In this document: one piece after another, positions 19,310 to 43,028 of the stretch
How positions within the stretch are numbered: position 1 is the stretch's first letter
Layout of the letters: each line of letters opens with the position of its first letter
Origin: Chiloscyllium plagiosum
Lineage: Eukaryota
NCBI RefSeq assembly: GCF_004010195.1
Contig: NC_057718.1
Location: 9,702,910-9,766,909, forward strand
DNA length: 64,000 nt
Direction of reading: 5' to 3'
Translations under genes and position numbers: made by a program
The notes under the pieces: generated by a model
The model's database searches: none
What the model was told of the DNA's origin: nothing
What the model saw: only the letters and a program-made list of their open reading frames with translations

Positions 19310-21717
19310 GACAGAGGCTGAGACCTGAATGTTCAGGTTGGGTTTTTTTAGATCTTTCAGAATGACAGGAAGCTAGGAAATGTTGGAGAGGTAGCAGTGC
19401 TAAGTAAGGATGACATTAATTTAATAGAGATTGCGATTAATTTAATCCTAAAGATTAATGTCTAGACCATTTCAGGTTGGAAGTCATTTGTGAATGTAGT
19501 TTATAGACCATCTGACAGTCACAGTACCATGGGACAGGGAATACAGGAAAATCTGATGGGAGCTCGTGAGCAAAGTATAACAGTAATCATGGGTTATTTT
19601 AGTTCTCATGTAGCAATTGGGTGAATCAGATTGGCAAAGGTAGCCTTGAAGATGGGTTCATAATGAATTTTCAGGACAGTTTTCAAGAGCAGCACATTTT
19701 TAGTGTCAACCAGAGTTGACTCTTGTAGATGTGGTAACATCTAATGAGACAAAATTAATTAAATAACTCACCGTGAAGATGCCACTTGGTAGCATTGATT
19801 GTAACATGATTGCATTTTGCATTCAGTTTGAGGGAGAGAAGTGTTAGTCTAAGACTAATGTTTTAAACTTTAAAAAGGTCAGTTATAAAGACATGAAAAC
19901 AATTGGCTAAAGTGAATCAAGGAATTAGGATAAAGGTTAGGTCAGTAAAGATGCAGTGGCAAAGATTTGAGAATATATTACTGAGGAAGTTAAAGATAGA
20001 AAAATACAACTCCATGAAGATTAGTGACAGTTCAGAAGATTGAACATTTTTTAAAAAAAGCAAACAATTTCTAAAAGATTAGTGAGAAGGGAAGAAGTTA
20101 AATATAAGAGATAGCTAGCTTGAAATATGAAAACATATACTGAGAGTTTCTACAGGAAAAGGAATAAGTAAAATGAGAGTGAGCCTGGGGAATTAATAAT
20201 GGAAAAGAAGGAAACGGTGGATGAATTGAACAGATATTATGTAGTTGTCACACTGTGGAGGATAGAAATGACAGCCTAGAAATTTGGAGTATTGTGTTCA
20301 GTTCCTGGCATCTTAGTTAAGGAAGGATGTTAAAGCTGTGGAGAAAGTGTAAAAGAGATTTACTGGAATGATTTCAGGAATAAGAGACTTTAGATTCAAA
20401 AGAAGATTAGAGAAATGGGGCTTATTCTCCTTGGAGCAGGGAAGATTAAGAGGTGACCTTATTGAGGTGTTCAAAATTATGAACAAGATTCATTTCAATC
20501 TTGAAATGAACAATGGGGAGTAGTTTCTTTACTCAGAGCAGTTGGGATTTGGAATGTGCTGCCTTGGAGGAGGTGGAGGTTTCGAAAGAGAGTTGGATAT
20601 ATATTTGAAAGTGATGAATTTACGGGGCCATGCAAAATGGGACTCCATTCCAATGGGACTCGGTCTCTCTTTCGGGAGCTGGTACAGACATGGTTTGTTG
20701 AATGGGCTCCTTCTGTACAGTAAAATTCTATGATTCTAAATCATTCTCAATCAGGAGGTGGAAGTGAAGAAGGAACTGAAACAAAGTACAATCACCAGGA
20801 GCAATTAAAAGCTTTTCAATAATGCGTTCGACAATGTTCCCCATGGGACCCTGGTTAGCAAGGTCAGGTCTCATGGTTTATAGGGAGAACTAGCCATTTG
20901 GATATAGAACTGGCTCAAAGATATAAGATAGATGGTGGTGGTGGAGGGTTGTTTTTCAGACTGGAAGCCTGTGCCACAAGGATCGGTGCTGGGTCTATTA
21001 CTTTTAATGATTTATATAAATGATTTGGATGGGAGTATTAGAGATGTAGTGGACTGTGAAGAAGGTTACCTCAGATTACAATGGGATCTTGATCAGATGG
21101 ACCAATGAGCTGAGGAGTTTAATTCAGATAAATGAGAGGTGCTGCATTTTGGGAAAGCAAATCTTAGCAGGACTTATACACTTAATGATAAGGTCCTAGG
21201 GCGTGTTTCTGAATAAAGAGACCTTGGAGTGCAGGTTCATAGCTCCTTGAAAGTAGAGTCGCAGGTAGATAGGATAGTGAAGAAGGCTTGCTTTCCTTTA
21301 TTGGTCGGAGAATTGAGTACAGGAGTTGGGAGGTCATGTTGCAGCTGTACAGGACATTGGTTCGGCCACTGTTGGAATATTGTGTGTAATTCTGCTCTTC
21401 TTCCTATCAGAAGGATGTCGTGAAACTTGAAAAGGTTCAGAAAAGATTTACAAGGATGTTGCCAGAGTTGGAGGATTTGAGCTATAGGGAGAGGCTGAAT
21501 AAGCTGGGGCTGTTTTCCCTGGAATGTCAGAGGCTGAGGGGTGATCTTATAGAGATTTGTAAAATCATGAGGGACGTGGATAGGATAAGTAGACACAGTC
21601 TTTTCACTGGGGTGGGAATCCAGACCTAGAAGGCAAAGGTTTAGGGTGAGAGGGGAAAGATATAAAAGGAACCTAAGGGGCAACTTTTTTCACGCAGAGG
21701 GTGATATGTGTATGGAA
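19310..21717 (+). mobile_element. Cluster of degenerate CR1 LINE fragments (endonuclease, RT, 3' regions), ending in a gap
   Basis: AFD.VPH-, VPQGSVLG- and LEKVQKRFTRMLP-type remnants. Confidence 0.75.
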
Positions 21718-22201
21718 NNNNNNNNNNNNNNNNNNNNNNNNNNNNNNNNNNNNNNNNNNNNNNNNNNNNNNNNNNNNNNNNNNNNNNNNNNNNNNNNNNN
21801 NNNNNNNNNNNNNNNNNNNNNNNNNNNNNNNNNNNNNNNNNNNNNNNNNNNNNNNNNNNNNNNNNNNNNNNNNNNNNNNNNNNNNNNNNNNNNNNNNNNN
21901 NNNNNNNNNNNNNNNNNNNNNNNNNNNNNNNNNNNNNNNNNNNNNNNNNNNNNNNNNNNNNNNNNNNNNNNNNNNNNNNNNNNNNNNNNNNNNNNNNNNN
22001 NNNNNNNNNNNNNNNNNNNNNNNNNNNNNNNNNNNNNNNNNNNNNNNNNNNNNNNNNNNNNNNNNNNNNNNNNNNNNNNNNNNNNNNNNNNNNNNNNNNN
22101 NNNNNNNNNNNNNNNNNNNNNNNNNNNNNNNNNNNNNNNNNNNNNNNNNNNNNNNNNNNNNNNNNNNNNNNNNNNNNNNNNNNNNNNNNNNNNNNNNNNN
22201 N
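21718..22201. other. Assembly gap (N); others at 28911-29627, 33893-34275, 40809-41183
   Basis: Runs of n, all inside young repeats. Confidence 1.
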
Positions 22202-22524
22202 CTCTATCCTAGGGAAAAGACCTTGTCTTTTCAACCTATCTATGCCCCTCATGATTTTATAAACCTCTAAGAGGTCATCCCTCAGCCTCCTACATCCTGG
22301 GAAACTAGCCCCAGCCTATTTGGCCTCTCCCTGTAGCTCAAATCCCAGTAACCCTTTCAAGCCACTTCAACAGTAAGAGCAAATGGAGTAACAAATTGGT
22401 ACAGATTGAGGGTTGGTAAGCTCACAAAAAGCAAAATGCAAGGTTAAATTGGTCATTTTCGGGGCAGCAAGATAAAGTGCGTGCCTCAGGGATCAGTGCT
22501 GTGCCCTGAACTATTTACATTCCA

Positions 22525-23580
22525 TATAGAGTCATAGAGATGTACAGCATGGAAACAGACCCTTTAGTCCAACTCGTCTATGCCAACCAGATATCCCAAA
22601 TTAATCTGATCCCATTTTCCAGCATTTGGCCCCTTTCCCTCTTAACCCTTTCTATTCATGTAACCAGAGTCTCTTTTAAATGTTGTAATTGTACCAGCCT
22701 CCATCACTTCCTCTGGCATCTCATTCCATACACGCATCATCCTCTGCATGAAAATGTTGCCCCTTAGGTCTCTCTTAAATCTTTCCCCCTCACCTTAAAA
22801 CACATGCCCTCCAGTTTTGGTAATATCCCCTACTCTGGGGAAAAGACTTTGACTATTCACCCTATTCATGTTCCTCATGATTTTATAAACCTCTGTAAAG
22901 TCATTCCTCAACCTCTGAAGAATCCAGGGAAAATAGCTCCAGCCTCTCCCTATAGCTCAAATCCTCCAACCCTGGCAACATCCTTGTAAATCTTTTCTGA
23001 ACCTTTTCAAGTTTCACAACATCCTTCTAATAGGAAGGAAACCAGAACTGAACATAGTATTCCAAAAGTGGCCTAACCAATGTCCTTTACAGCTGCAACA
23101 TGACCTCCCAACTGACAAATAAAAGCAAGTATACCAAATACCTTCTTCACTATCCTATCTACCTGCGACTCCACTTTCAAAGAACTATGAACCTGTACTC
23201 CAAGGTCTCTGTTCAGCAACACTCCTTACCATTAAGTGTAAAAGTCCTACCCTGATTTGCCTTTCCAAAACAGTTAAATTCACACAATACCAGGTTATAA
23301 TCCAACAGGTTTATTTGGAAGCACTAGCTTTCAGAGTGTGCTCCTTCAACCACCTGATGAAGGAGCAGTGCTCCAAAAGCTAGTGCTTCCAATTAAACCT
23401 GTTGGACTATAACTTGGTGTTGTGTGATTTTTAACTTTGTACACTCCAGTCCAACACTGGCTCCTCCACATCATGGTTTCCAGAACAGAACATCGCATTT
23501 ATCTAAATTAAACTCCACCTGCCACTCCTAGGCCGGAAGCTCACCTGATCAAGGTCCCGTTGGACACTGAGGTAGTCTTT
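22525..23580 (-). mobile_element. CR1 LINE 3' fragment interrupted by a PLE hairpin element
   Basis: Reverse complement of the CR1 3' region; insertion at ~23274-23475. Confidence 0.8.
23274..23475. mobile_element. Mini hairpin PLE derivative, family 2 (GGAGC-stem hammerhead)
   Basis: Inverted arms cacacaataccaggttataatccaacaggttt / aaacctgttggactataacttggtgttgtgtg; CTGATGAAGGAGCAGTGCTCC(A)AAAGCTAGTG; near-TSD tttccaaaacag/tttccagaacag. Confidence 0.8.
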
Positions 23581-24586
23581 TTAATGTCTGGATTAATGTC
23601 TGGTTGCTAACTTTGCTGGTGTCACCAAGGCAAGTAGGAAAGTAAGTTGTGTAGAGGACAAATTAATCTGCAAATGGACATTGATAGATCTGGGAAGCTT
23701 TCAACGTTGGGCTGATTTTGTAGTACAGTGGCTATTGTAGGAAACAGAGCAGGCAATTTGCATGCAACAAGCTCCCAAAACTATCTGAGCAGTGTCAGTT
23801 GATAGATATGTATTGGAGAGCCAGACATAACAGCCTTCACAATGAGTGTCAAGGGATCTTTCCTATTTATCTGAGAGTATGAACAATTTAACATTTCATC
23901 GAGAGCTGATACTTCTGTCTCTGCTACACTGGGACCATCAGCCTAGATTTTATGGTCAAGTCTTTGGAATGGGACTCAGAGCCAGAGGCCTTCCCCGTTG
24001 AACCATGTGTGATATCTGCAATCGCTTTGCAAATTCATTCCCCATCACGAAGCAGGGAACTCTGCAGAAGTCCAGAGGCAGTGGCCAGGCGGGTCACTGT
24101 AGGACCATGCAGTCATATTTATATGTCAAATTTGGTGAGAAATGTAGCTGCTTGGTTCTCAATATTCTTCTGCTGCTCAGTGTTGCCTGGACTGGAAATG
24201 TTTTAATCCAGTGCTGTGATTTCCCACCAATATTCAAAAGGAAATTCAGTGTAAACACTGGCACTAGGGATTAAAACTAACACTTATTGGACAATGGGGT
24301 AAGAACAGGGGAGTGGCACTAATGATATAGACCTTTCAAAGAGCCAGCTCAGGCAATGATGGCCCAAATGGCCTCCTCCTCTGTTGCATCCTTGTATGAT
24401 TCTTTTTGATTAAAGGCAGGTAGATAGATTCCTGATGAACAAAGGGTATTGGGGGATAGCAGAAAAGTGACATTGAGACTCCAGTTTGGGAGCCATGGTT
24501 GCAATGAATGGTGGAGAATGGACCACTCCTACCTCCCCTGTTCATAGGTTCACACATAGGCTGCGATGGTTTATGTGAGGACTCAC

Positions 24587-24676
24587 CGGGTGGATCAGCT
24601 CCTGCATGGTCTCCTCATGCTCCTGAAGTGGCTGAGAGTGAGGACTCAGACTCCCAGCTTCATCCACTTCCCCTTC
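24587..24676 (-). CDS. ECT2L: ECT2L exon (EGEVDEAGSLSPHSQPLQEHEETMQELIHP)
   Basis: Acceptor ctgttacag, donor CCG|GTGAGT, 90 nt phase 0; poorly conserved linker. Confidence 0.75.
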
Positions 24677-24737
24677 CTGTAACAGTGAACACAAAGGAAA
24701 ACAACATGCATGTGTGAAAGGATGAGGTGCAGAGTGT

Positions 24738-24970
24738 CTGCTGGGATAGTGACAGGGTGCGGTGTAGAGGGTGTGGCTGGGATAGTGACAGGGTGCGGTG
24801 TAGAGGGTGTGCTGGGATAGTGACAGGGTGCGGTGTAGAGGGTGTGCTGGGATAGTGACAAGGTGCGGTGTAGAGGGTGTGCTGGGATAGTGACAGGGTG
24901 CGGTGTAGAGGGTGTGCTGGGATAGTGATAGGGTGCGGTGTAGAGGGTGTGCTGGGATAGTGACAGGGTG
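24738..24970 (+). repeat. 35-bp minisatellite (CTGGGATAGTGACAGGGTGCGGTGTAGAGGGTGTG), ~6.5 copies
   Basis: Units start at 24741, 24777, 24812, 24847, 24882, 24917, 24952. Confidence 0.95.
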
Positions 24971-24984
24971 AGGGGCAGAGGATG

Positions 24985-27795
24985 TATTATTTTTTCCAAA
25001 GTGCAAGACCTCGCATTTGCTCACGTTGAATTTCATCAGCCATTTCTTGGACCATTCACCTAAACTGTCACCTAATCTTTCTGCAGCCTCCCCATCTCCT
25101 CAGAACTACCTGTACATCCACCTAACATCGTATCATCGGCAAACTTCGCCAGAATGCTCCCAGTCTCTTCATCCAGATCATTAATATATAAAGTGAACAG
25201 CTGGGGCCCCAACACCGAACCCTGCGGACACCACGTGTCACCAGCTACCATTCTGATAAAGAACCTTTTATCCCAACTCTCTGCCTTCTGTCAGACGGCC
25301 AATCCTCAATCTATGCCAGTAGCTCACTTCAAACACCATGGACCCTCACTTTACTCAGCAGCCTCCCGTGAGGCACCTTATCAAAGGCCTTTTGGAAGTC
25401 TAGGTAGATAACATCCATTGGGTTTCCATGATCTAACCTACTTGTTACCTCTTCAAAGAATTCTAACGGGTTTGTCAGGCATGACCTCCCCTTACTAAAT
25501 CCATGCTGACTTGTTCTAATTTGACCCTGCACTTCCAAGAATTTAGAAATCTCATCCTTACTGATGTATTCTAGAATTTTACCTACAACTGAGGTTAGGC
25601 TAATTAGCCTATAATTTTCCACCTTATGTCTTGATCCTTTCTTGAACAAGGGGGTTACAACAGCAATTTTCCAATCATCTGGGACTTTCCCTGATTCCAG
25701 TGATTTTTTGAAAGATCACCACCAATCCCTCCACTATTTCCTCAGCCATCTCCCTCAGAATTCTACGATGTAGCCCATCCGGGCCAGGAGATTTATCAGT
25801 TTTTAGACCTTTAGCTTTTCTAGTACTTTCTCCTTTGTAATGGGCACCATACCCAACTCTGCCCACTGAATCTCCTTAATTGTTGGGATATTACTCCTGT
25901 CTTCCACTGTGAAGACTGACACAAAGTATTTATTAAGTTCTTCAGCTTTTTCCTGATCTCCCAGCACTAGCCTTCCTGCATCAGTTTGGAGCAGCCCAAT
26001 CTCTACTTTTGCCTCTCAGTTGTTTCTTATGTATTGAAAGAAACTTTTACTATCATTTCTAATATTACTGGCTAGCTTACCTTCATATTTGATCTTCTCT
26101 ATCCTTATTTTTCTCTTTGTTCTCTGTTTGTTGTTGTAGTCTTTCCAATCTTCTGATTTCCCAGTGCTCTTGGCCACTTTATAGGCTCTGTTTTTCTGTG
26201 TTACATATCCTGAGTTTCTTCATCGGCCACGGTTGTCTAATCCCCCCTCCCCCCGGATAATCTTTCTTTTCTTTGGGATGAACCTCTGTACTGCATCCTC
26301 AATTACACCCGGAAACTCCTGCCATTGTTGCTCTACTGTCTTCCCCACTAGGCGCTGCTTCCAGTCAATTTTCATCAGTTCCTCTATCATGCCCTTGTAA
26401 TTACCTTTATTTAACTGTAACACCATTATATCTAATTCTACTTCTCTCTTTCAAACTGTAGACTGAATTCGACCTTACTATGTTCGCTGCATCCTAAGTA
26501 CTCCCTGACTTAAGGTCTTTTATAAAGTCTGGCTCATTACATAGCACTAAGTCCAGAATAGCCTGCTCCCTTGTGGGCTCCATCACAAGCTGTTCCAAAA
26601 CACCATCCTGTAAACATTCCATGAATTCCCTTTCTTTGGATCGACCAGCAACATATTCACCCAGTCCATTTGCATATTGAAGTCCCATGATCACCATGAC
26701 CTTGCCTTTCTGACATCCCTATCTATTTCCTGGTCCTGACCACTGCTGGGAGGTCTATATGTAACTCCCATTATGGGTTTTTTGCCTCTGTGATTCCTCA
26801 ACTCCACCCACACAGACTCCACATCATCTGACCCTGTATCATTTAATGCCATAGATTTAATTCTTAACTAACTTAACTCTTTCATTCTTAACTCTGCCCA
26901 CCTTCCTGTCTTTTCAATAAGTTTGTAAATCCTTGGATGTTTTACAGCCAGTCCTGAACCCCCTGCAACCACATCTCTGTGATGCCTACCACATCATTAT
27001 CATTCAAGATGATTTGTGCTGTTAATTCATCTACTTTGTTTCAAATGCTTCAAGCATTCAGATAAAGCATCTTAATGCTAATTTTTTTTATCCTCATGAT
27101 TTCCATCACCTCTACCTAAGTTATCCTTCCTTTTTGCTTCATTCCTAGTCAGCCTTGAACTTAAACCCTGCACACATGCTAAGCTGCTGCTTATCTTTCT
27201 ACTTGACTCCATACTCCCTGTTGCTTTCCCCGCCCCCCCCCGACTCACAAGTTTAAAGTCTTAGTGACCACTCTATTTATCCTTTTTGCCAGAACACTGG
27301 TTCCAGATTGGTTCAGGTGGAGACTGTCCCATTGGTACAGATCACCCCGGTTCCAAACCTGATGCCAATGTCCCATGAAATGGAATCCCTCTTTCCCATA
27401 CCGATCTCTTAGCCATGTGTTTCCTTCCCTAATTTTCTTATCCCTATGCCAATTAGCATGTGGCTCGGGCAGTAATCCAGAGATTATGACCGTCGAGGAC
27501 CTGTTCTTCAATTTCCTTCCTAGTGCTTGATAATCCTCCTTCCTAGCCTTGCCTATGTTGTTAGTGCCAACGTGGGCCACAACAACTGGATCCTCCCCCT
27601 TCCACTCCAATATCCCTTCAAGCCGGTCAGAGATGTCCTGCACCCTGGCACCAGGTAGGCAAAACGCCATGTGGGACTCCTGATCTGGCTCGCCAAGGAT
27701 ACTATCTGCCCCCTTAATTAAAGAATCCCCTATAACAACTACTTGTCTTTCTGCTCCCACCTCTTGAATGACCTTCTGCACCATGGTGCCATGGT
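24985..27795 (-). mobile_element. Long CR1 LINE: ORF1 SGNH/GDSL esterase, ORF2 endonuclease and RT (disrupted)
   Basis: ORF 27245-27985 has VVVIGDSL, CLPGARV, HVGTNN, DSLHLN. ORF2 remnants: PTREQAILDLVL, KSPGPDGLH, NYRLISLTSVVGKILE, YLDFQKAFDKVPH. Confidence 0.92.
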
Positions 27796-28424
27796 CAGCT
27801 AAAGACATCCCTAAAGAGCCTACAAGTTGATTTTGTAGTGCAGTGGCTGTTGTAGGAAATGGAGCAGGCAATTTGCATGCAACAAGCTCCCAAAACCATT
27901 CTAGCAATGTCAGTTGGTAGATATGTTTTGGAAAGCCAAATGTAACAGCCTTCAAAATGAGTGTCATGGGATCTCTCCCATTCATCCTGAGAGTATGAAC
28001 AATTTAACATTTCATCAAGAGCTGATACTTCTGTCTCTGTTACACTGGGAGCATCAGCCTAGATTTTATGGTTAAGTCTTGGGAATGAGATTCAGACAAA
28101 GGTGTTCACCATTGAGCCATGTATGATACCCGCAATTGCTTTGCAAATTCATTCCCCATCACAAAACAGGGAACTCTGCAGAAGTTGGAGGCGGAGGCCA
28201 GGTCGGTCACTGTAAGACCATGCAATTATATGTATGTGTCAAGTTTGGTGAGAAATGTAGCTGCTTGGTTCTCATTATCATTCTTCTGCTGCTCAGTGTT
28301 GCGTGGAGTGGAAATGCTTTAATCCAGTGTTGTGATTTCCTACCAGCATTCAAAAGGAAATTGGGTATAAACACTGGTACTAGGGATTAAAAATAAAACT
28401 TACAAGAGAATGGGGTAAGAACAG

Positions 28425-30554
28425 AGATGATGAGATGTGAAGGCTCAGGGCGCTTGAGGGTTACAAGGTAGCCAGGAAAGACCTAAAGAGAGAGGCCAGG
28501 AGGAGACATGAGAAGTTGTTGGCGGATAGGATCAGGGTAAACCCTAAGGCTTTCTATAGGTATTTAAGGAATAAAAGATGATGAGAGTAAGATTAGGGTC
28601 AATCAAGGATAGTAGTGGGAAGTTGTGTGTGGAGTCAGAGGAGATAGGGGAAGCAGTAAATGAATACTTTTCAACAGTATTCACTCTAGAAAACAACAAT
28701 GTTGTCGAGGAGATTGCTGAGATACAGGGTATTAGACTAGGTGTGATTGAGGTTCACAAGGAGGAGGTATTAGAAATCCTGCAGAGTGTGAAAATACATA
28801 AGTCCCCTGGGCCGGATGGGATTTATCCTAGGATCCCCTGAGAAGCCAGGGAGGAGATTGCTGAGTCTTTGGCATTGATCTTTAAATCATCATTGTCTAC
28901 AGGAATAGTGNNNNNNNNNNNNNNNNNNNNNNNNNNNNNNNNNNNNNNNNNNNNNNNNNNNNNNNNNNNNNNNNNNNNNNNNNNNNNNNNNNNNNNNNNN
29001 NNNNNNNNNNNNNNNNNNNNNNNNNNNNNNNNNNNNNNNNNNNNNNNNNNNNNNNNNNNNNNNNNNNNNNNNNNNNNNNNNNNNNNNNNNNNNNNNNNNN
29101 NNNNNNNNNNNNNNNNNNNNNNNNNNNNNNNNNNNNNNNNNNNNNNNNNNNNNNNNNNNNNNNNNNNNNNNNNNNNNNNNNNNNNNNNNNNNNNNNNNNN
29201 NNNNNNNNNNNNNNNNNNNNNNNNNNNNNNNNNNNNNNNNNNNNNNNNNNNNNNNNNNNNNNNNNNNNNNNNNNNNNNNNNNNNNNNNNNNNNNNNNNNN
29301 NNNNNNNNNNNNNNNNNNNNNNNNNNNNNNNNNNNNNNNNNNNNNNNNNNNNNNNNNNNNNNNNNNNNNNNNNNNNNNNNNNNNNNNNNNNNNNNNNNNN
29401 NNNNNNNNNNNNNNNNNNNNNNNNNNNNNNNNNNNNNNNNNNNNNNNNNNNNNNNNNNNNNNNNNNNNNNNNNNNNNNNNNNNNNNNNNNNNNNNNNNNN
29501 NNNNNNNNNNNNNNNNNNNNNNNNNNNNNNNNNNNNNNNNNNNNNNNNNNNNNNNNNNNNNNNNNNNNNNNNNNNNNNNNNNNNNNNNNNNNNNNNNNNN
29601 NNNNNNNNNNNNNNNNNNNNNNNNNNNCTGGATGAGGGCGTAGAAGGGTGGGTTAGTAAATTTGCAGACGACACTAAGGTTGGTAGAGTTGTGGATAGTG
29701 AAAAGGATGTTGTAGGTTACAGAGAGACATAGATAAGCTGCAGAGCTGGGCTGAGAGGTGGCAAATGGAGTTTAATGCAGACAAGTGTGAGGTGATTCAC
29801 TTTGGTCGGAGTAACTGAAATGCAAAGTACTGGGCTAATGGTAAGATTCTTGGTAGTGTAGATGAGCAGAGAGATCTCGGTGTCCAGGTACATGGATCCT
29901 TGAAAGTTGTCACCCAGGTTGACAGGGTTGTTAAGAAGGCATACAGTGTTTTAGCTTTTATTAATAGAGGGATCGAGTTCTGGAACCATGAGGTTATGCT
30001 GCAGCTGTACAAAACTCTGGTGCGGCCGCACTTGGAGTACAGTGTACAGTTCTGGTCACCGCATTATAAGAAGGATGTGGAAGCTTTGGAAAGGGTGCAG
30101 AGGAGATTTACTAGCATGTTGCCTGGTATGGAGGGAAGGTCTTACGAGGAAAGGCTGAGGGAGTTGAGATTGTTTTCGTTAGAGAGAAGAAGGTTGAGAG
30201 GTGACTTAATAGAGACATATAAGATAATGAGAGGGTTAGATAGGGTGGACAGGGGGAGCCTTTTTCCAAGAATGGTGATGGCGAGGACAAGGGGGCATAG
30301 CTTTAAATTGAGGGATGATAGATATAGGACAGATGTCAGAGGTAGTTTCTTTACTCAGAGTAGTAAGGGTATGGAATGCTTTGCCTGCAACGGTAGTAGA
30401 TTTGCCAACATTAAGTACATTTAAGTCGTCATTGGACAAGCATATGGACGTACATGGAATAGTGTAGGGTAGATGGGCTTCAGGTTGGTATGAAGGTCGA
30501 CGCAACATCAAGGGCCGAAGGGCCTGTACTGTGCTGTAATGTTCTATGTTCTAT
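28425..30554 (+). mobile_element. 5'-truncated young CR1 LINE with (GTTCTAT)n tail and AACAG TSD; contains a gap
   Basis: KSPGPDGIYPR, KFADDTK, LYKTLVRPHLEY; AACAG at 28420-28424 and 30555-30559. Confidence 0.92.
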
Positions 30555-30681
30555 AACAGGGGAGTGGCACTAATGATATAGACCTTTCAAAGAGCCAGCT
30601 CAGGCAACGATGGCCCAAATGGCCTATTCCTCTGTTGCATCCTTAAATGATTCTTTGATTAAAGGCAGGAAGTGACTGTAC

Positions 30682-30798
30682 CTTCACCGGATCAATCCCA
30701 CCTCCACCTTGCGTCAAGAATGTTTCTTCAACTTTAAACCACTTGCTTTTCCCTGCTTGGCTTTTAAGAAAGTCAGCGAGAAATCCCAGGGGGTTCTC
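30682..30798 (-). CDS. ECT2L: ECT2L extra exon (ENPLGFLADFLKSQAGKSKWFKVEETFLTQGGGGIDPVK), second half of a Dpy-30-like motif
   Basis: Acceptor ctcatctttcag, donor AAG|GTACAG, 117 nt symmetric phase 0, open frame, in non-repetitive sequence. Confidence 0.8.
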
Positions 30799-31428
30799 CT
30801 GAAAGATGAGCAGAACACTTCATGTTACACCATGCCGGGAGACCCCTTTCGGCAGAATACCTAATGGAGCATGCCTCACTGTAGAACCACTCAGAACCTT
30901 GTAGTTGAACACCCTTTTGAAAGTTATTGAAGCTGCCTCTTTCCCTTTCAGCTCATGTATTTTCTGTCACAAGAATTCAGTATTTTTACTCTCCAACTCT
31001 TTCACCAACTCCCTTGTACCTTGTCTTGAGGTCAGCTAGCTGGACCTTACAGAAGTGAATTCCCTGATTGGGGCTGTTAATCTGGCCCAATCAGGGAGCC
31101 CTGAAGAGGCAGTACTGAAGTCAAGGACTGTTCATGTACAATAAAGGGTGACTTGGTGAAGGGATATTGGCCTTTGTAGAGTTACTTCACTGTCTGGTTA
31201 CTGATGCTCTTGTCAATGTTTAACCATTGCTTCTTATTTACCCCTGACATATCTCTTCATGATATCCAAACCTGCTTTAATTCTCCACCTAGCTTTCCTT
31301 GTTTTGACAAAAGTCCCAGTATCTTCCGATCTCACGCAGTTAGCGAAGAACACCATCCCTGTTACAATTCCAATCTCGAGAAGGTTTCTCTCTAAAGGGA
31401 GGTAAAGAAGCCTCTGATTCTCACATAC

Positions 31429-31532
31429 CTGCTTTTCTCTTATCATTGCGATCAGCCCTTCAGTTAAGGTTTGAGCAAGTTCCTGGTTCTGAAGCATCTG
31501 AGTTGTACTCATCGAGTCAAACATGAGCTGCC
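31429..31532 (-). CDS. ECT2L: ECT2L exon (GQLMFDSMSTTQMLQNQELAQTLTEGLIAMIREKQ)
   Basis: 104 nt; donor CAG|GTATGT; GQ.MFD motif. Confidence 0.94.
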
Positions 31533-31649
31533 CTGCAGAGAAATAACAGGACCAGCTGAACCCTCCGTCAGCTTTGAGAAACTGTCCACCCACACTGATC
31601 CAGAGGACACTTCATGGAACTCTAGTTTCAAAAACTGCCCAAACTGACT

Positions 31650-32870
31650 GCAAGAAAACACACTCAGGTAAGGCAGAGTTATGGGGTGTATGAGCAAGAA
31701 CTGTACCACAGGGATCAATGCTGGGACCTTTGCTGTTTGTCATATGTATTAATGACTTTGATGGGAATGTAGAAGGTCTTATTAGTAAGCTTGCAGATGA
31801 CCTGAAAATTGGGGGCTGTTGATCATGAGGAGTTTGGTCTCAGGCTACAGTCTGATATTGGATCAGCTGGTACATTGGGCTGAGTGATAGCAGATAGAAT
31901 TTAATCCCGATAATTGTGAAGTGTTGCACTTTGGGAGGCCCAGCAGAAAAGGGTATACAAAATGAGTAATGGGTCCCTGGACTGTCCTGAGTACCTTGGT
32001 GTGCAGGTCCATAGATCCCTGAAAGTGCCAGCACAGGTAGACAGGCTGGTGAAGAAGGCATACAGGATACTTGTCTGCATTAGTTGGGGCATAGAACATA
32101 TGAGCAAGCCTAATAAAACATTGAGCTGAAAATGTGTTGCTGGAAAAGCGCAGCAGGTCAGGCAGCATCCAAGGAGCAAGAGAGCCTTCTTCAGGAATGC
32201 CCAAAACGTCGATTCTCCTACTCCTTGGATGCTGCCTGACCTGCTGCGCTTTTCCAGCAACACATTTTCAGCTCTGATCTCCAGCATCTGCAGTCCTCAC
32301 TTTCTCCTAATAAAACATTGATTAGGCCACAGATGGATTTCTGTGTGCACTTCCAGTCACCACCATTATTGGAAGGATGTATTTGCACTGGAGACGATGC
32401 AGAGGAAATTCATCAGGATGTAGTCCGGGATGGAAAGTCTCAGTTACAAGGAGAGATGTGGATAGGCTGGGTATGTTTTCCTTGGAGCAGAGGAGGCTGA
32501 GGGGGAATCTGACTGAGGTATACAGTATTATGAGAGACTTGGACAGGGTAGATCATGAGAATCTTTACCCCATGGCCGATGTGTCTAAGACCAGATGGCA
32601 CAAGTTTAAGGTGAGCAAATGGTTTAGAGAAGATCTGAGAAAAAACATTTTTCACTCAGAGGTTGATATAAGTACAGAAGGTGCTGCCTGAGAGGGAGGT
32701 GAAGGTAGGTACTCTCACAACATTGAACAAACATCTGGATGAGCACTTAAAATGCCAGGGCACAGTAGGCTCTGGACCAAGTGCGGGTAAATAGAATTAA
32801 TGCAGTTAAATGTTTGTTGGTTGGCATAGACTGGGTGGGCTGAAGGGCCTGTTCCTATGCTGAATGACTC
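31650..32870 (+). mobile_element. CR1 LINE RT/3' fragment interrupted by a PLE hairpin
   Basis: VPQGS.LGP and ADD remnants; RRLRGNL; 3' tail. Confidence 0.8.
32124..32307. mobile_element. Mini inverted-pLTR PLE derivative with 13-16 bp TSD
   Basis: TAATAAAACATTG at 32111-32123 and 32308-32320; long inverted arms around scrambled hammerhead halves. Confidence 0.85.
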
Positions 32871-33743
32871 TTTAATTGTATAACTGAGTGAAAGAGAATA
32901 GAAGAAGGATTTATGTCAAGAAAAAAGGTGCCAGGAGAGTGAATGAAGGAGATGGGAAATAAAAATAATTAAATGAGGAGCTGGCCAGAAGAACAGTGCC
33001 AGGGAAAGAGATGGTGGAAGAGGAGGAGAAGATGCTTGGGGAGAAGAAAAATGGCCGGACAGGTAGACAGATGGATAGTTAGATCATTGAAAAATCCTCT
33101 TGGTGGCAGGTGTTGAATGGTGATAACAATACAAATGAAAAAATGTAATTGAGGGACAAGATTGCAGCATGGTGTTCATTTCACTGGGCGAGTGATCCAC
33201 AGGCCCAACTTAATACCCTGGGGACACAGGTTCAAATCACACCATGGCATCTGGACCTACTTAATGCAGTTAATGATTTTTTTAAAAATCATTTGTAACA
33301 TTGTTGTAGACAGTTATAGATGTAAATGTTTGCTGTTAATTTATCTGAACTTCTCAGCATACAAATAATTGCAAAATGCAGATCATTTTATTTTGTAGAA
33401 TAAAAATAAAAGATTCCTGCATCAGCTTTTTTAAAAATGAAGCTGTTTCAGCATTTATTGCCCTTTCTTATTGAACTGAGCGGTTTGTCAGGTCCATTTC
33501 AGAGGGCAGTTCATAGTCAACCGCATCTGGAGTCACATGCAGGCCAGACCAGGTAAGGGTGATAGAGTTCCTTCCTGCTTTAATGACCATTGACAATGGT
33601 TACAATTAGACTAGATTTTAATCAATCTGCTGTGAAGGGATTTGAACCAATTTTTCTAAAGTATTAGCCTGGGTCTCTGGATTACCAGTCCAGCAGCATT
33701 AAGCACGTTGCCACCACCTCCTGACATTAAAGGTAGTAGGTAA

Positions 33744-35202
33744 AAACAATGACTGCAGATGCTGGAAACCAGATTCTGGATCAGTGGTGCTGGAAGAGCA
33801 CAACAGTTCAGGCAGCATCCGAGGAGCAGTAAAATCGACGTTTCGGGCAAAAGCCCTTCATCAGGAATAAAGGCAGAGAGCCTGAAGGGTGANNNNNNNN
33901 NNNNNNNNNNNNNNNNNNNNNNNNNNNNNNNNNNNNNNNNNNNNNNNNNNNNNNNNNNNNNNNNNNNNNNNNNNNNNNNNNNNNNNNNNNNNNNNNNNNN
34001 NNNNNNNNNNNNNNNNNNNNNNNNNNNNNNNNNNNNNNNNNNNNNNNNNNNNNNNNNNNNNNNNNNNNNNNNNNNNNNNNNNNNNNNNNNNNNNNNNNNN
34101 NNNNNNNNNNNNNNNNNNNNNNNNNNNNNNNNNNNNNNNNNNNNNNNNNNNNNNNNNNNNNNNNNNNNNNNNNNNNNNNNNNNNNNNNNNNNNNNNNNNN
34201 NNNNNNNNNNNNNNNNNNNNNNNNNNNNNNNNNNNNNNNNNNNNNNNNNNNNNNNNNNNNNNNNNNNNNNNNNNNNGCCTTGGATAGAGGTGTGGGAGGA
34301 GGTGTGGGCGCTGGTTTTACAGTTCCTGCGGTGGCAGGGGAAAGTGCCAGGATGGGAGGGTGGGTCGTAGGGGGGCGTGGACCTGACCAGGTAGTCACGG
34401 AGGGACCGGTCTTTGCGGAAGGCGGAGAGGGGTGGGGAGGGAAATATATCCCTGGTGGTGGGGTCTTTTTGGGGTGGTGGAAATGTCGGCGGATGATTTG
34501 GTTTATGCGGAGGTTGGTAGGGTGGAAGGTGGGCACCAGGGGCGTTCTGTCCTTGTTGCGGTTGGTGGGGTTGGGTCTGAGGGCGGAGGTGCGGGATGTG
34601 GACGAGATGCGTTGGAGGGCATCTTTAACCACGTGGGAAGGGAAATTGCGGTCTCTAAAGAAGGAGGCCATCTGGTGTGTTCTATGTTGGAGCTGGTCCT
34701 CCTGGGAGCAGATACGGCGGAGGAATTGGGAATATGGGATGGCATTTTTGCAAGAGGTAGGGTGGGAAGAGGTGTAATCCAGGTAGCTGTGGGAGTCAGT
34801 GGGTTTGTAAAAAATGTCAGTGTCAAGTCGGTCGCTATTAATGGAGATGGAGAGTTCCAGGAAGGGGTGGGAGGTGTCAGAGATGGTCCAGATAAATTTA
34901 AGGTCAGGGTGGAATGTGTTGGTGAAGTTGATGAATTGCTCAACCTCCTCGCGGGAGCACGAGGTGGCACCAATGCAGTCATCAATGTAGCGGAGGAGGA
35001 GGTGGGGAGTGGTGCCGGTGTAATTATGGAAAATCAACTGTTCTACGTAGCCAACAAAGAGACAGGCATGGCTGGGGCCCATACATGTGCCCATGGCTAC
35101 CCCTTTGGTCTGGAGGAAGTGGGAGGATTCGAAGGAGAAATTGTTAAGGGTGAGGACCAGTTCGGCCAAACGAATGAGAGTGTCGGTGGAAGGGTACTGT
35201 GG
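33744..35202 (-). mobile_element. Penelope-like retroelement (RT C-terminal part plus pLTR), 5'-truncated, with 12-bp TSD
   Basis: QTKGVAMGT.MGP, RYIDD, DIFYKPTDSHSYLDYTSSHP (PLE-type RT); GGTAGTAGGTAA at 33732-33743 and 35203-35214. Confidence 0.92.
33833..33868 (-). ncRNA. Minimal type I hammerhead ribozyme motif in a PLE pLTR
   Basis: Reverse complement ATTC-CTGATGA-A-GGGC-TTTT-GCCC-GAAAC-GTC-GATT. Confidence 0.8.
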
Positions 35203-35970
35203 GGTAGTAGGTAATTTTTAAGTCAAAGTTCTGATCATTTGCATACTATATATGAGTTTTGTAATGTAGGAGATTGAGCCATATTGTAGTCTGTTTGTCC
35301 TGATACTTAGTTGGGGAATGTTGTTCCATAATTTTATCACACGTTGACTCCCAAGTGATTGTGACAAGAAATAGTGGTGATGGGAGGTGGTATTCAGGAG
35401 TTTTCTGGTCAGGTGCAGACAAACGTCCCTGAAACGGCTGAACCATTATGTTTTTGGGAATGTAAAATTAATGCCTCTGCGACATTTGTGTTTATAAATG
35501 GTCTGTAAATTTCACCAAGGGAAGAAGAGGGGAAATGAGAGGTAAAGACTGAGTAAGAAAAAAGAGCAAAAATTCAGTAAGTGGGAAATCTCAATATTAA
35601 TCTTCCACATCGATTTCTATAGGGAAAAAAAACCCGAAAGAACTGCAGATGCTGGAAATCAGAAACAGTGAGAAAGCGTCACTGGACCTGAAACTTTAAC
35701 TCCGATTTCTCTCCACAGATGCTGCCAGACCTGCTGAGATTTTCCAGTAATTTCTGTTTCAATTTCTATAGAATTCACTGGGTTCTTTGACAGAGAATGC
35801 CAGGATATCAGGAATGAAAGAGCCCGCTGATTATATATCAGGGATAACAACAGAGAAATTACACAGCTTTGCTTATTATGGGAGTTTAAAGAAATTCCAG
35901 TAACTTAACAAGTATTAGGTACCTAACTATTAAATGCAGGAGGAGGAATAAAACATGACTGAAATCGTAC

Positions 35971-36153
35971 CGATCATCCGTGCACAGGTGTCTCGCTGCA
36001 GTTGTCTGAAATACGGCCTCATCTGTTTGCGGACTGTTCTCAGGACCTCCTCCTGTAACTGGGCTGTCCTGCTCCATTCCTGCAGCTTCCTCTCATTGAA
36101 GTACGTGGCTGGGGGAGCTGTATCCCCATCATTCCGCAGCCACTCACTGAAAA
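35971..36153 (-). CDS. ECT2L: ECT2L exon (IFSEWL...YFNERKLQEWS...TVRKQMRPYFRQLQRDTCARMIG)
   Basis: 183 nt, phase 1 to 1. Confidence 0.95.
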
Positions 36154-36413
36154 CTGACAGCCAACAGAGCAAGCATTTAATCTACCATGAGAGGAATGTG
36201 AGGGTTACACAAGAACACAGGACAGGAAGAAGGCCATTCAGCCCCTCCAACTCTCTCTGCCATTCAACTAGATCTTGGCTGATCTTTTGACTCGATGCCA
36301 TTTTCCTGCACTATCTTCATATCCTTTCATACCATCAATCTCAGTTTTGAATGTGTTCAATAAACTCAAGTTGCCTGACATTATTACCAGTGCCCGTAAA
36401 CTGCAATGCATGC

Positions 36414-36742
36414 ATAGAATACCTACAGAGTGGAAACAGGCCCTTCGGCCTAGTGCCCACACTGACCCTCAGAGTATCCCACCCAGACCCATTACCCTAT
36501 TACTCTACATTTGTCCCTGACTAATGCACCTAACCTCCACATCCCTAAACACTATGGGCAATTTAGCACAGCCAATTCACCTATTCCACACACCTGTGGA
36601 TTGTAGGAGGAAACCGGAGCAAACCCGCACAGACACAGCGAGAACGTGCAAACGCCACACAGACTGTCGCCCGAGGCTGGAATTGAACCCGGGTCCCTGG
36701 TGCTGTGAGGCAGCAGTGGTAACCACTGAGCCACTGTGCTGT
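36414..36742 (-). mobile_element. HE1-type SINE
   Basis: Same family as 5705-6020. Confidence 0.85.
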
Positions 36743-36839
36743 CCTAATTCCATTAGCTTTCTTGATTATTTTCTGTAGGGAAAGGCAGGTTGGAACTCGA
36801 AGCTGCTCATGGTTATGTCACAGACCAGAGTTTTGGGGG

Positions 36840-36925
36840 AGGGCGGGTGTGTGTGTGAGGGCGGGTGTGTGTGTGAGGGCGGGTGTGTGTGTGAGAGGGC
36901 GGGTGTGTATTAGGATGGGTGTGTG
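36840..36925 (+). repeat. 18-bp G-rich tandem repeat (GGGCGGGTGTGTGTGTGA), ~4 copies
   Basis: Directly visible. Confidence 0.9.
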
Positions 36926-37157
36926 GGTTTTGGGGAACAGCAGAGGGCGCAGAGAGCAGGAAAGTGGAAGAGAGAGCAAGACGGGGAGAATGGTGGGGTA
37001 GGTGGTAGTATACAGCACAGTGAACCCTATTGACTTTGGTACATCATGCATGTGTGATAACAACAATCGGTTGAACAGCCTGTCAGGGTTGAGATACTGC
37101 ACTTTCGGAACTAAACGCATCAAGGCAGGAGCACGGCAAGAGTCCCAAGATACTCAC

Positions 37158-37250
37158 TGTGCTGATACGATCCTGTGGCGATCCCAGTCGGTGAGCTGTG
37201 ACATACAGCAGTCAGTGCTGAGAGCTGGCAAAGGAGCTCCATTCCTGCTT
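37158..37250 (-). CDS. ECT2L: ECT2L exon ([31 protein letters not shown])
   Basis: Read manually; 93 nt; [11 protein letters not shown] motif; donor A|GTGAGT. Confidence 0.95.
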
Positions 37251-37492
37251 CTGGCCACACACACGGAGATGGGTTAAACTCATAAGTGAATCACACAGAC
37301 CTTTTAAAAACAGTAAGGCCATTCATCCCAAAGAGCCTCTCCCTCGCTCTTTCTCAAGTAGATGCAAATGCTACCTCTCTGCCTGCTTCCCAGATATTTC
37401 ATTTTATTCTCTTCAGAAACACTGTTGTTTTGCATTGTAAAATATCGTGCCCCTTGCAGGAGGAGAATTGAGAAGGCAAGTGTTCATCTATT

Positions 37493-37694
37493 GTGAAAAA
37501 TCACACAACACCAGGTTTCAGTCCAACAGGTTTAATTGGAAGCACTAGCTTTCAGAGCACTGCTCCTTTATCAGGCGGTTGTCTAGTAGTGCTCCGAAAG
37601 CTGGTGCTTCCAATTAAACCTGTTGGACTATAATTTGGTGGTGTGTGATTTTTAACTTTGTCCACCCCAGTCCAACACTGGCCCCTCCACATCA
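37493..37694. mobile_element. Mini hairpin PLE derivative, family 2, with 10-bp TSD
   Basis: TTCATCTATT at 37483-37492 and 37695-37704; homologous to 23274-23475. Confidence 0.85.
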
Positions 37695-38297
37695 TTCATC
37701 TATTATGGTCCAGCTGTGGTTATTTGGGTCTCCAGATGTGGTTAATCATTAAAGAAGCAATGTGCTATAGGCATTACCATTGGCTATGTGATCCATTACT
37801 CATTTGTATGTGAACTTTAAATTCTTTTACACGTATTGGTGAAAGAGGAAATTAAAAGTAAATTGTGCAAGTGATTTTTGATTATTAAAGCAGCTTCCAG
37901 AATACTTGCAAATGTTTATTTCTCGTATGTGTCTGTGTGGGTATGTGCGTGTACGTTTGTGTGTGTCTGTGAGTGCGCCTGTGTGTGTCTCTGTCTCTGT
38001 ACCTGTGTGTGTGAGGCACCTTCTGCTAGTATCAGTGCATGTGGCTAAAAACACTGGCAGAAAGTGGAAATAAAAATTGTCCCCCCCTTGACTCTATCCC
38101 CTCCGACCATTCCTGAGGTAGGGACATCAAGGGGTCAAAATGAACTTGCCCCAGCTCATTCAAAAACAAAGAAAACCAAAAGAAAATCAAATCCCCTCTG
38201 GTCCGTTCCCCATTGAATGTTCCTGGGCCAGGTTCAAAAAGGATTTCAAAATCCAGAGCAGAGTTCCTTTACTCATTTTAACTAAAGGTAAAATCCT

Positions 38298-38585
38298 GGC
38301 ATGGTGGCTCAGTGGTTAACACTACTGCCTCACAGCGCCAGAGACCGCAGGTTCAATTTCAACCTCAGGTGACTGTCGGTGTGGAGTTTTGAACATTCTT
38401 CCCGTATCTGCGTGGGTTTCTTCTGGGTACTCTGGTTTCCTCCCACAGTCCAAAGATGTACAAGTTAGGTGGATTGACCATGGGAAATGTGGTGTTAGAG
38501 GGTCGGTCTGGGTGGGATGCTCTTCGGAGGGTTGGTGGACTCAATGGGCCAAATGGTCTACTTCCACAGTGCAGGGATTCTATGA
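38298..38585 (+). mobile_element. HE1-type SINE
   Basis: GGCATGGTGGCTCAGTGGTTAACAC head. Confidence 0.85.
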
Positions 38586-40053
38586 TCAATCAAGCACACA
38601 TGGGACAGTACAGGATTTAAATAAAAGTCTCCTTTTGGGTCCAAAATCAATACAAAAGAAAAATAAAACAGCCCTTTTCAGGGCACAACACCAAGAACAA
38701 ACACAAACTTAATGTGTCGTATGAAAGCTATGCTACTAACTGTCCATCATGACCTGGTGAAAACTCATCTCTTCTTCTCTCACTTCCTGACAATTGTGGC
38801 TCAGTGGGTGGCACTTTCCCTTCTGAGGCACAAGGTCATGGAGGCTTGACTTTTTTTTTCATGAGATGTGTGTGCCATTGGCAAAGCTGGTATTTGGTGC
38901 CTACCCCTAATTACCCCCTTGAGATGGAGGTGGTGAGCTGCAGACTATCTGGCATCTCCAAGCATTTCCATCTCCATGGCTTATCCGAGAAGTGAAGACA
39001 TTTCTGTGGATCTGGAGTCACATGTAGGCCAGACTGGGTAAAGACAGCAGATTTCCCTCCCAAAAGGGCAGGAGCGAACCCCATGGGAACTTTACAACAA
39101 TTGGTGATCAATTCAGCTACCACAGTGAGATTTGAACTCCTGCCCCAGAGCATTAACCTGGATTGCGAGTCTGTTAACATTACAATAGTGACGCCAGCTG
39201 CCCCCAGGGTTGAAGCCACAATCCCAAGCCTTACACAAAGGATTCAGGATGACACCCCAAAGCTGTACCATGAGCGTGGTGAGATTTGGATGAGATTGAG
39301 GCCCTGCCTGCCTTCTCAGATGGATGGATGGAGAAGATCCCATATCAATATTTCGACAAGCATGCTTGTTCCATCTGCTGTCCCAGCCCTCACCAACATA
39401 ACTGGAAAGGGTTGACCTGTTTGTTATTTCACTTGTTTGTGGGAGCTTGCTCTGCACAAATGTCTCTCTGCATTTCCTACACACTCATCCAAACAACTTC
39501 ATTGGTTGTAAAGCACTTTGAGAATTCCTAAGGTGATATATAAATGCAAGTTCTTTATCCTTTACGTAAGAGGTCACAGTTTGAAGAGGTCTACAGTACA
39601 GAACAGCCAAAAAAATTACAGCTCAGGGAAAGTCAGTGTTGAAAGAGTGACATTGGTAACGAGGAGAAAATTGTCCACTTTCTGTTTGGATTCTAGAAAC
39701 TTCCTAGATACAAGTCAGGATAGTGTGTGGCTTGGAGGGGAACTTGCAGGTGGTAGCATGGTCCCATGACAAGGCTAGCAGAGACATGGCAAGATCACCA
39801 CCATGAAAGGAGCAAGACCCCGTCCAAGCCACTCACCTATGGCCTTGAGGGGAATGTTCAGGTGGATCCCAGTCCAAAGTTGGACATCAAATCTGGGCAA
39901 AACCATAAGTTATCTCTGACTGAGAAACGACTTACTCAGGGAAAGCCTTCCAAAATAATTTCCTTGTCTGGTCTACTCAGTACTGGCTCTGACTGGATGA
40001 TGCACAAATAGTTTTGCACCTTCATCTTAAACCGTTGAAGATCAGACACGAAC

Positions 40054-40182
40054 CTGAGGCAGCCAATGGCACAAAGATATCGATACGTCCTCCCTCTTCC
40101 TGCGACAAGACGCAGCCACTCATATTTTCCCAGAATCCCCTCACCTCAGCCTCTGGAAGATTCTTTGAGCTGATTTTGCAGC
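40054..40182 (-). CDS. ECT2L: ECT2L exon (CKISSKNLPEAEVRGFWENM...EEGGRIDIFVPLAAS)
   Basis: 129 nt, phase 1 to 1; EVR.FWE and EEGG.ID.FVPL motifs. Confidence 0.95.
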
Positions 40183-40693
40183 CTGGAGACAGGGAGAAAT
40201 GGGGAAGGGTTGAGAATATCACCTTCTGTCAGTGATGCTCCTGCAACACACCTCAGGATCCTGGAGGATTGGTAGACCTCAAGCCTACTCTACCTGTTGA
40301 GGAAACTCCCAGCAGAGGCCCCTGAAGGAAGGTGCCCAAGTCTTCAGTCACGCAACACAGGCTACTCCCAGTCTGGAAAGGGCCAGGTGGGTAGATGGCT
40401 CATAGAGGCCACAATGGCTGGTCAGTGTCCATTTTAACAGGCATTCATTAGAATATAAGAAATCAGAGTGGGAATAAGCCAATCAGCTTATCGAGCCTGT
40501 CCTTCTATTCAGTAAGATCATGGTTGAGCTGATTGTGGCCTTAACTCCTCTCTCTTGTTGACCCGCTCCCGTAACCCTTGACCATAACATGTCAACCTAA
40601 AATCCACAGAAGGCAATTTCAAAGATCAACACAACCAGAGAAAAACATTCATCAACTTCTACTTAAATGGGGCTCACCTTGTTTTTAAACTGT

Positions 40694-41312: not shown

Positions 41313-41620
41313 TTTAAACTGTGACCCCAGTGTAAATTCCCCCATGAGAGGAAACATTCCTCTCAGTATCTCCCTGGTCAGAGTCCCTCAGAACTTTACA
41401 TGTTGACACAAGGTTTTCTCTCATTCTTTCAAATCCTATTCAGTCCTGGTCCAAACTGCTCAACCTACCCTCATAGCACAATCCTTTCGTCTCAGGGATC
41501 AGGTCAGCGAACGTTCTCTGAGTTGACCCCAATGCAAGTATGTTCCTCTTTAACCTTGTGTCTCTGAGTTGATCATAATGTCCTGATTGATTAGTATCTG
41601 ATCACCAAGGTTCTACTTGC

Positions 41621-41789
41621 CTTGTACCAAGTCCATCTCCGTCGAGTCCCCCTCAGCGACAATCCCAATGCTTCTGGCTCTCCGACCCCTCAGCACTTTT
41701 TCCAGACGGTACAGGAGGCTGTCTGGCGTCGTCCCAGAGTACTCATATAACAGGGGTAGCACGCCAATCTTCACACAGTCCACAACCAT
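41621..41789 (-). CDS. ECT2L: ECT2L exon, DUF4347-like region (MVVDCVKIGV...GDSTEMDLVQG), ends at a GC donor
   Basis: 169 nt; donor CAAG|GCAAGT gives the required phase 1. Confidence 0.9.
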
Positions 41790-42951: not shown

Positions 42952-43028
42952 GAGGAAAGTTGGTCCAGCAGGCTAAGATAAAAGATAGGGACTATCTTTT
43001 ATCTTAGCCTGCTGGACCAACTTTCCTC

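Follow-up and report, generated by a model that had tools for sequence, protein, structure and literature searches.

AK7 is one of the ciliary proteins that carry a Dpy-30 domain. As described in the relevant parts of two reports (PMC8339350, PMC3494852), Dpy-30 domains dimerise into a four-helix bundle with a D/D fold like that of the PKA regulatory subunits, and the partner whose amphipathic helix they bind is ASH2L/Bre2 in COMPASS and RSP3 in the radial spokes. With regard to ECT2L, the part of PMC4199137 that concerns the zebrafish gene states that ect2l is induced by FoxJ1 and needed for motile cilia, and that its knock-down shortens them. In a 2026 preprint (10.64898/2026.06.11.731632), a dimer of ECT2L was placed in the transition-zone linker of cilia from bovine trachea, and DZANK1, a transition-zone protein, was named as an interactor. 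This assignment was made by fitting predicted models into the density, and the section of the preprint that describes it does not state which part of ECT2L forms the dimer.

When ECT2L of the shark Chiloscyllium plagiosum is compared with these systems, it shares with DPY30/Sdc1 of COMPASS the same pattern of about 35 residues, L..GL..la.E.p.NP.eFLa.yL, by which it was aligned with HMMER to the chains 4riq_A, 3g36_A and 6chg_E, and it has the same predicted helix-turn-helix with a short helix ahead. However, DPY30 is a small protein that consists of little but the domain, whereas the module of ECT2L lies midway in an F-box/RhoGEF protein of 1011 residues. The module of ECT2L also differs in that it is split over two exons, the second half being an optional exon in mammals, in that its score lies at the Pfam cut-off or slightly below it, and in that its dimer is putative.

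The radial-spoke proteins RSP2/DYDC and RSP23/NME5 resemble ECT2L in that a Dpy-30-type module is combined with an effector domain in a protein linked to motile cilia, and two NME5 chains (8j07_X and 8wzb_E) were matched by the ECT2L module in the PDB. According to the section of PMC3494852 on radial spokes, their Dpy-30 domains dock to the amphipathic helix of RSP3. The effector of ECT2L is, in contrast, a DH-PH RhoGEF together with an F-box, and its place, as given in the assignment section of the preprint (10.64898/2026.06.11.731632), is the transition-zone linker and not the radial spoke. The RIIa D/D domain of PKA and the R1D2/R2D2 proteins (ROPN1, SPA17, CABYR) belong to the same clan as the ECT2L module. 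As outlined in PMC8339350 where this domain is treated, two RIIa D/D chains form a four-helix bundle to which an AKAP helix binds, and the same logic is proposed here for ECT2L. Unlike RIIa, ECT2L has the sequence signature of the Dpy-30 branch.

ECT2L is probably a RhoGEF/F-box ciliary protein that has a Dpy-30-type D/D module inside it, with half of the module encoded by an optional exon. It is already known that the exon is in the NCBI models and that PF05186 is placed on some orthologs in automatic Pfam lists, for example on ECT2L of Stegostoma (X2), Heterodontus, Ascaphus, Trichosurus and Monodelphis. The tie between the Dpy-30-type module and the optional exon was not found stated in the literature searched, and this search found no paper on ECT2L and Dpy-30 together.

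The shark ECT2L gene and its exons 12 to 14

The window, that is, the whole stretch of 64,000 nucleotides analysed, contains the complete coding region of C. plagiosum ECT2L on the minus strand. It runs from 56488 down to 2257 (2257..56488) and consists of 22 coding exons, as determined by the exact mapping of P0004 to the window. P0004 (XP_043551276.1) is C. plagiosum ECT2L isoform X1 with 1011 amino acids, and the product encoded by the window is 100% identical to it. Its domains are an F-box (residues 109-147), DUF4347 (355-525), a Dpy-30-like region (573-605), RhoGEF (DH; 678-857) and PH (about 915-1005). The gene was identified as ECT2L by the order F-box, DUF4347, RhoGEF and PH and by the orthology to named ECT2L proteins.

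A survey of Dbl RhoGEFs in 2017 (PMC5499878) reports, in the portion that deals with ECT2L, that an ortholog was absent from the searches of Callorhinchus, Leucoraja, Rhincodon and lamprey. In contrast to this, a full ECT2L gene of 22 exons was found here in a shark, and there are NCBI models in at least 12 chondrichthyans, Rhincodon typus included. The part of P0004 at residues of about 30-240 (exons 56488-46691), which is the DUF4508-like and F-box part, gave very many matches to short proteins of 140-450 amino acids with 40-60% identity, one of which, in a sea-urchin cluster (P0284), is named F-box only protein 16. In its front part, ECT2L thus resembles a module of FBXO16 type that has been fused to DUF4347-DH-PH. 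Some ECT2L models (P0156, P0308 and P0369) have an N-terminal CCDC28 domain (PF13270), which is probably due to read-through or to a prediction merged with the neighbouring gene.

Coding exon 12 (31429..31532, minus strand) has 104 nt and encodes residues 558 (in part) to 592. As its first two bases belong to a codon split by the preceding intron, its frame starts at 31530, and the translation is QLMFDSMSTTQMLQNQELAQTLTEGLIAMIREKQ. On the minus strand, the exon is bordered by ...tctctgcag upstream and by gtatgt downstream. AlphaFold2 predicts two helices in the encoded part with pLDDT of 79-84, a short one at 567-572 and the first helix of the module at 574-590, ..LAQTLTEGLIAMIREK. The part of exon 12 inside the Pfam Dpy-30 match (31429..31488, minus strand) corresponds to residues 573-592 and to profile positions 7-26.

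Coding exon 13 (30682..30798, minus strand) has 117 nt, is in phase 0 at both ends and encodes residues 593-631, of which the translation is ENPLGFLADFLKSQAGKSKWFKVEETFLTQGGGGIDPVK. Its borders on the minus strand are ...tctttcag upstream and gtacag downstream. The first 15 codons, ENPLGFLADFLKSQA (30754..30798, minus strand), encode the end of the turn and helix 2 (595-607), judging from profile positions 27-39 of Dpy-30, from the conservation and from the AlphaFold2 model. The remainder (30682..30753, minus strand; residues 608-631) consists of variable columns and is predicted to be a disordered linker, the pLDDT being below 50 from residue 612. Coding exon 14 (24587..24676, minus strand) has 90 nt in frame and encodes residues 632-661, an acidic linker predicted by AlphaFold2 to be disordered, of which the translation from 24676 to 24587 starts with EGEVDEAG.

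The NCBI model P0004 joins exons 12, 13 and 14 in exactly that order. The preliminary description of this DNA had joined 31429 to 30798 and 30682 to 24676, and both joins are those of the NCBI model. The exon joining and the translations given there were also correct, since the borders are canonical AG/GT and the joined peptide agrees with the NCBI ECT2L model at 100% identity. Exon 13 is already in the NCBI annotation and is therefore not a newly recognised exon. Because it has 117 nt and phase 0 at both ends, its skipping preserves the reading frame.

The introns beside exon 13 carry high-copy repeats at 29524-30554, 24888-27815 and 28304-29035. In four runs, contigs and reads accumulate on the repeats with a likeness of 90-95%; for X4 and X1, which are contig runs, the summed depths range from thousands to more than 100,000. 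The repeats have a sharp edge near 30553-30555, which is about 128 nt away from the donor site of exon 13, and the G+C content of positions 28001-30000 of the window is only 27.7%. In the sequencing runs X4, X19 and X1, nearly all aligned reads were on the intronic repeats (90-95% likeness), and in X20 no reads aligned. In X1 the depth was 0.9-1.8 in the bins with the three exons, and over the runs it was 0-1.8 in the exon bins. In the runs searched, 18 of which overlap the window with no RNA run among them, no exon-exon joint was found among the 15 of 99 joints listed, and the exon depth was very low.

Sequence match and predicted structure of the module

Apart from single regions, which are named where they were used, the searches were made with whole proteins and whole-protein alignments. 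P0004 matched Pfam Dpy-30 (PF05186) at residues 573-605, corresponding to profile positions 7-39 of 42, with 21.9 bits and an E value of 1.4e-4. As the gathering score of Pfam Dpy-30 is 22 bits, P0004 falls 0.1 bit short of it. Exon 13 alone gave 11.3 bits at profile positions 27-39. The zebra-shark (Stegostoma) orthologs gave 24.4 and 24.1 bits and P0125 gave 24.8 bits, which are above the cut-off.

The relation of this match to exon 13 was clear when orthologs with and without the exon were compared. At E <= 0.1, 36 of the 48 exon-holding orthologs matched Dpy-30 (the best E value being 2.3e-6) and 12 failed, whereas none of the 30 exon-lacking orthologs matched. The 48 exon-holders tested are 47 of the 90 in the vertebrate set described below and the langur protein P0296. 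The motif had at first been described as Dpy-30/RIIa-like. The Dpy-30 side of this description holds, with a match that depends on the exon among orthologs, but the score of P0004 is just below the cut-off, and RIIa (PF02197) gave no match at E <= 1 for P0004, P0005 and P0006 in the Pfam search.

The 57-residue stretch gave 18 matches to PDB sequences at E <= 10, of which 15 were chains of Dpy-30 domains and three were GRB7. The best match was Sdc1 (6chg_E, E 0.0097); DPY30 (4riq and 3g36) was matched with E values of 0.04-0.07 and NME5 (8j07_X) with 0.37, and another match of Dpy-30 type was a ciliate or algal 'Dpy-30 motif protein'. Each of these matches is weak, with E of about 0.01 or worse, and the dog form P0146 also matched DPY30 chains in PDB weakly (E 0.55-1.4). 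The pattern common to the PDB alignments made with HMMER is L..GL...A.E.P.NP..FLA..L. As far as can be judged from sequence, the match of the joined exons to Dpy-30 is more than chance.

The AlphaFold2 model and the conservation were both based on an alignment of 70 sequences. In the model of the whole P0004, there are a helix at 567-572, a helix at 574-590, a loop at 591-594 and a helix at 595-607 with pLDDT of 73-84. That is, the helix-loop-helix of about 40 residues with a preceding short helix, which is characteristic of Dpy-30, is present in the model. A helix of 48 residues (517-564) directly precedes the hairpin, and residues 612-665, with pLDDT below 50, are predicted to be disordered. 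L580, L584, P595, L596, F598 and L599 are conserved in at least 90% of the 70 sequences, and L603 is conserved in all of them. Because the conservation and the helix are found there and the chain is predicted to be disordered from residue 612, the functional content of exon 13 appears to be confined to the first 15 codons or so.

The helix-turn-helix fold that had been proposed for this region is probably right, as the Pfam match, the PDB sequence matches and the secondary structure in the AlphaFold2 model agree with it. We think that the region is probably a real and conserved Dpy-30-type helix-turn-helix, and that the formal Pfam membership of P0004 is borderline. A homodimer prediction with residues 556-625, which made no use of the alignment and gave an uncertain fold, reached a score of 0.02 where the mark is 0.32, and it weighs neither way. 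The ESM Atlas search with residues 564-615 gave no usable match. When the whole AlphaFold2 model was compared by Foldseek with a PDB library that contains entries to April 2026 and is without 11xu, only DH/PH RhoGEF structures were returned.

Distribution of exon 13, its skipping and its age

A homolog of exon 13, with the consensus D.PLEFLS.FLLKKC..., was found in 90 of 120 vertebrate ECT2L proteins, the other 30 being without it. It is present in 12 of the 13 chondrichthyan entries (sharks and rays) and in all of the 16 elasmobranch isoforms, which form four clusters. Sturgeon, bichir, caecilians, salamanders, frogs, squamates, echidna, marsupials and most placental entries also have the homolog. 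A model of the shark Cetorhinus (P0011) and a frog-like transcript fragment (P0167) are without exon 13. The preliminary description regarded exon 13 as an extra exon of the shark, but this is not in agreement with such a spread, in which primates are included.

In isoform X3 of Rhincodon typus (P0379), the exon-14 homolog, an acidic linker of 30 amino acids, is skipped and exon 13 is kept. The disordered linker is therefore also modular. In the 120-protein sample, all ten turtle and crocodilian ECT2L models (P0023, P0024, P0034, P0040, P0065, P0066, P0076, P0077, P0088 and P0098) are without the exon-13 homolog, and all five squamates have it. No bird ECT2L entry was found in this sample or among the best 120 of the 213 matches to the primate region described below. 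The exon may truly have been lost in turtles and crocodilians; alternatively, the gene may have been lost or may have diverged in birds.

ECT2L forms without the exon, with 904-921 amino acids, are annotated in many mammals. The full and the skipped forms of mammals differ by 41-42 amino acids, their lengths being 959 versus 917/918. At the level of annotation, both forms occur within the same species in Urocitellus parryii (P0055/P0112), Trichechus inunguis (P0100/P0121), Galeopterus (P0332/P0108) and Bos hybrids (P0314/P0109), and in these four the exon-holding form has 928-959 amino acids. Thus, in annotation-level evidence, the exon shows the features of a cassette, namely a length that is a multiple of three and both inclusion and skipping within one species. 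Contigs of transcript size also contain exon 13 in other vertebrates, that is, P0064 (947 amino acids on 3582 nt) and P0043 (1010 amino acids on 3173 nt). Since these contigs are too short for introns, exon 13 is included in mature mRNA of those vertebrates. Exon 13 is best described, on the basis of these sequence comparisons, as an ancient in-frame cassette, which most models contain and some skip.

The region of the capuchin protein that includes the exon served as the query of a search, of which the best 120 of 213 matches were listed. The exon is intact in orangutan isoforms X4 (P0295) and X5 (P0294), which are 91% identical across the whole capuchin region, and in the langur Trachypithecus (P0296), which is 90% identical to that region. 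It is also open and conserved in Sapajus, Callithrix and Saimiri (New World monkeys) and in Lemur and Nycticebus (strepsirrhines). The exon-13 homolog of orangutan encodes DKPLEFLSYFLL..., and its human counterpart would have 126 nt. No entry named Homo sapiens was found among the best 120 of the 213 matches to the exon-containing primate region. PDB entry 11xu contains two chains of ECT2L ('Epithelial cell-transforming sequence 2 oncogene-like') of 904 residues without exon 13. The ECT2L chain of 11xu reads ...ADGLMELSKEDS and then directly ERNVVEDN, which is the skipped form, and its exon-12 part is identical to that of orangutan. A form in which ...AQALADGLMELSKEDS runs straight into the linker had been given for human in the preliminary description, and such a form exists, as the 904-residue chain of 11xu reads so.

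Outside vertebrates, a search of 1.84 billion representatives with HMMER gave orthologs whose domains follow the same order. In P0151 of the ichthyosporean Chromosphaera perkinsii, this order is F-box, DUF4347, Dpy-30 (with 24.1 bits, which exceeds the cut-off), RhoGEF and PH. Two further relatives, P0208 and P0173, gave 18.3 and 13.7 bits against Dpy-30, respectively. In six invertebrate orthologs (amphioxus, acoel, Lottia, sea urchin, coral and sponge), no match to Pfam Dpy-30 was obtained at E <= 1. By an HMM made from the vertebrate module, LEFLGRYLL was found at the equivalent position in amphioxus, PPLQFLSDYL in the acoel and PLEYLGNYV in the limpet Lottia, and only a weak match was found in sea urchin. 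Because none of the six invertebrates gives a Pfam match, the motif outside vertebrates rests on the HMM derived from ECT2L and on one ichthyosporean. In the sea-urchin relative P0144, a Death domain replaces the F-box upstream of DUF4347-RhoGEF-PH, and a weak module-like motif, NPAAFLGETLL, is present at the equivalent position.

The suggestion that ancestral ECT2L already had the module agrees well with these data, as the module is at the same position in the ichthyosporean ortholog and is recognisable in amphioxus, acoel and limpet. An ancestral module is supported by the sequences, and this support is solid for vertebrates and one pre-animal lineage and softer in between. Given the module in the ichthyosporean ortholog, the architecture would date to before animals.

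Possible role of the module and other explanations

We consider it fairly probable that exons 12 and 13 together encode a Dpy-30-type D/D helix-turn-helix, by which ECT2L may pair and dock. The module would sit between DUF4347 and the DH-PH RhoGEF; helix 1 (L..GL..) would come from exon 12 and helix 2, '(D/E)NP.EFL..FL', from the first 15 codons of exon 13, while the codons after these and the whole of exon 14 would form a disordered linker. When exon 13 is included, two ECT2L chains would pair by an X-type four-helix bundle, like DPY30, the resulting groove would dock the amphipathic helix of a partner, and ECT2L, with its F-box and RhoGEF, would in this way be anchored where motile cilia have their base. 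Since exon 13 is an in-frame cassette, its skipping would leave half a module that is unable to form the fold, and ECT2L would then lack this tether.

It is also possible, though we find it doubtful, that the hairpin is an internal structural piece of ECT2L that packs on helix 517-564 or on DUF4347 of the same chain. If so, it would be Dpy-30-like by descent or by convergence, there would be neither a dimer nor docking, and the skipping would merely shorten the linker. The location of the hairpin directly after the 48-residue helix 517-564 in the AlphaFold2 model is consistent with this explanation, as are the borderline Pfam score, the absence of the Pfam signal in all six named invertebrate orthologs, and the two copies of the exon-less 904-residue form in 11xu. 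However, the residues conserved in ECT2L are those common to DPY30 and Sdc1 in the alignments, 15 of the 18 PDB sequence matches are D/D domains of Dpy-30 type, and known members of the family act as dimers, according to the parts of PMC8339350 and PMC3494852 on this subject. With regard to the dimer in cilia, the 904-residue chain of 11xu is without exon 13, and caution is therefore needed in equating the dimer of the preprint with the Dpy-30-like module. If the two chains of 11xu touch each other, pairing needs no exon 13. A further extension of the D/D explanation seems unlikely to us, namely that the inclusion of exon 13 switches ECT2L from a free monomer to a docked dimer at the transition zone, which would be the 'ECT2L dimer' of the transition-zone linker, and that the unicellular ancestor in common with ichthyosporeans already had the module.

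Far less probable is the first explanation given for this locus, in which the exon is extra in sharks, or only ancestral, with the module having been lost or cut short in the human lineage. The 904-residue PDB chain without the exon does match the peptide given there for human, and Homo sapiens is not named in the best 120 of the 213 exon-region matches. A loss or truncation in the human lineage is nevertheless unsupported, as the exon is intact in the models of orangutan, langur, Sapajus, Callithrix, Saimiri, Lemur and Nycticebus, and as it is held by 90 of the 120 vertebrate ECT2L proteins. Because exon-less forms sit beside exon-holding ones in many mammals, the skipping cannot be called a loss, nor is it specific to humans. 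As a general explanation, loss of the exon in the human lineage was rejected, since catarrhine and other primate models retain it. We can give hardly any credence to the view that exon 13 is an artefact of gene prediction in this shark and is in no mature mRNA. It is true that the NCBI model is a prediction and that the 15 of 99 joints listed include no exon-exon joint, but the borders are canonical AG/GT with phase 0 at both ends, the 16 elasmobranch isoforms in four clusters all include the exon, the residues of helix 2 are nearly invariant across vertebrates, and a homologous exon is present in the transcript-size contigs of other vertebrates.

We now return to the probable D/D module encoded by exons 12 and 13 and to what it may mean for ECT2L, which is a little-studied RhoGEF/F-box protein. 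If one half of a D/D module at a fixed position is encoded by an optional in-frame exon, this gives a hint of how ECT2L might pair and be anchored, and of how splicing could release it. Since the commonly used form of 904 residues is without the second helix, experiments or predictions using that form would miss the module. The presence of the module in the ichthyosporean ortholog appears to place this architecture earlier than animals. If the switch by exon 13 is true, ECT2L would be an ancient D/D-anchored link of Rho signalling or SCF ubiquitination to the flagellar base.
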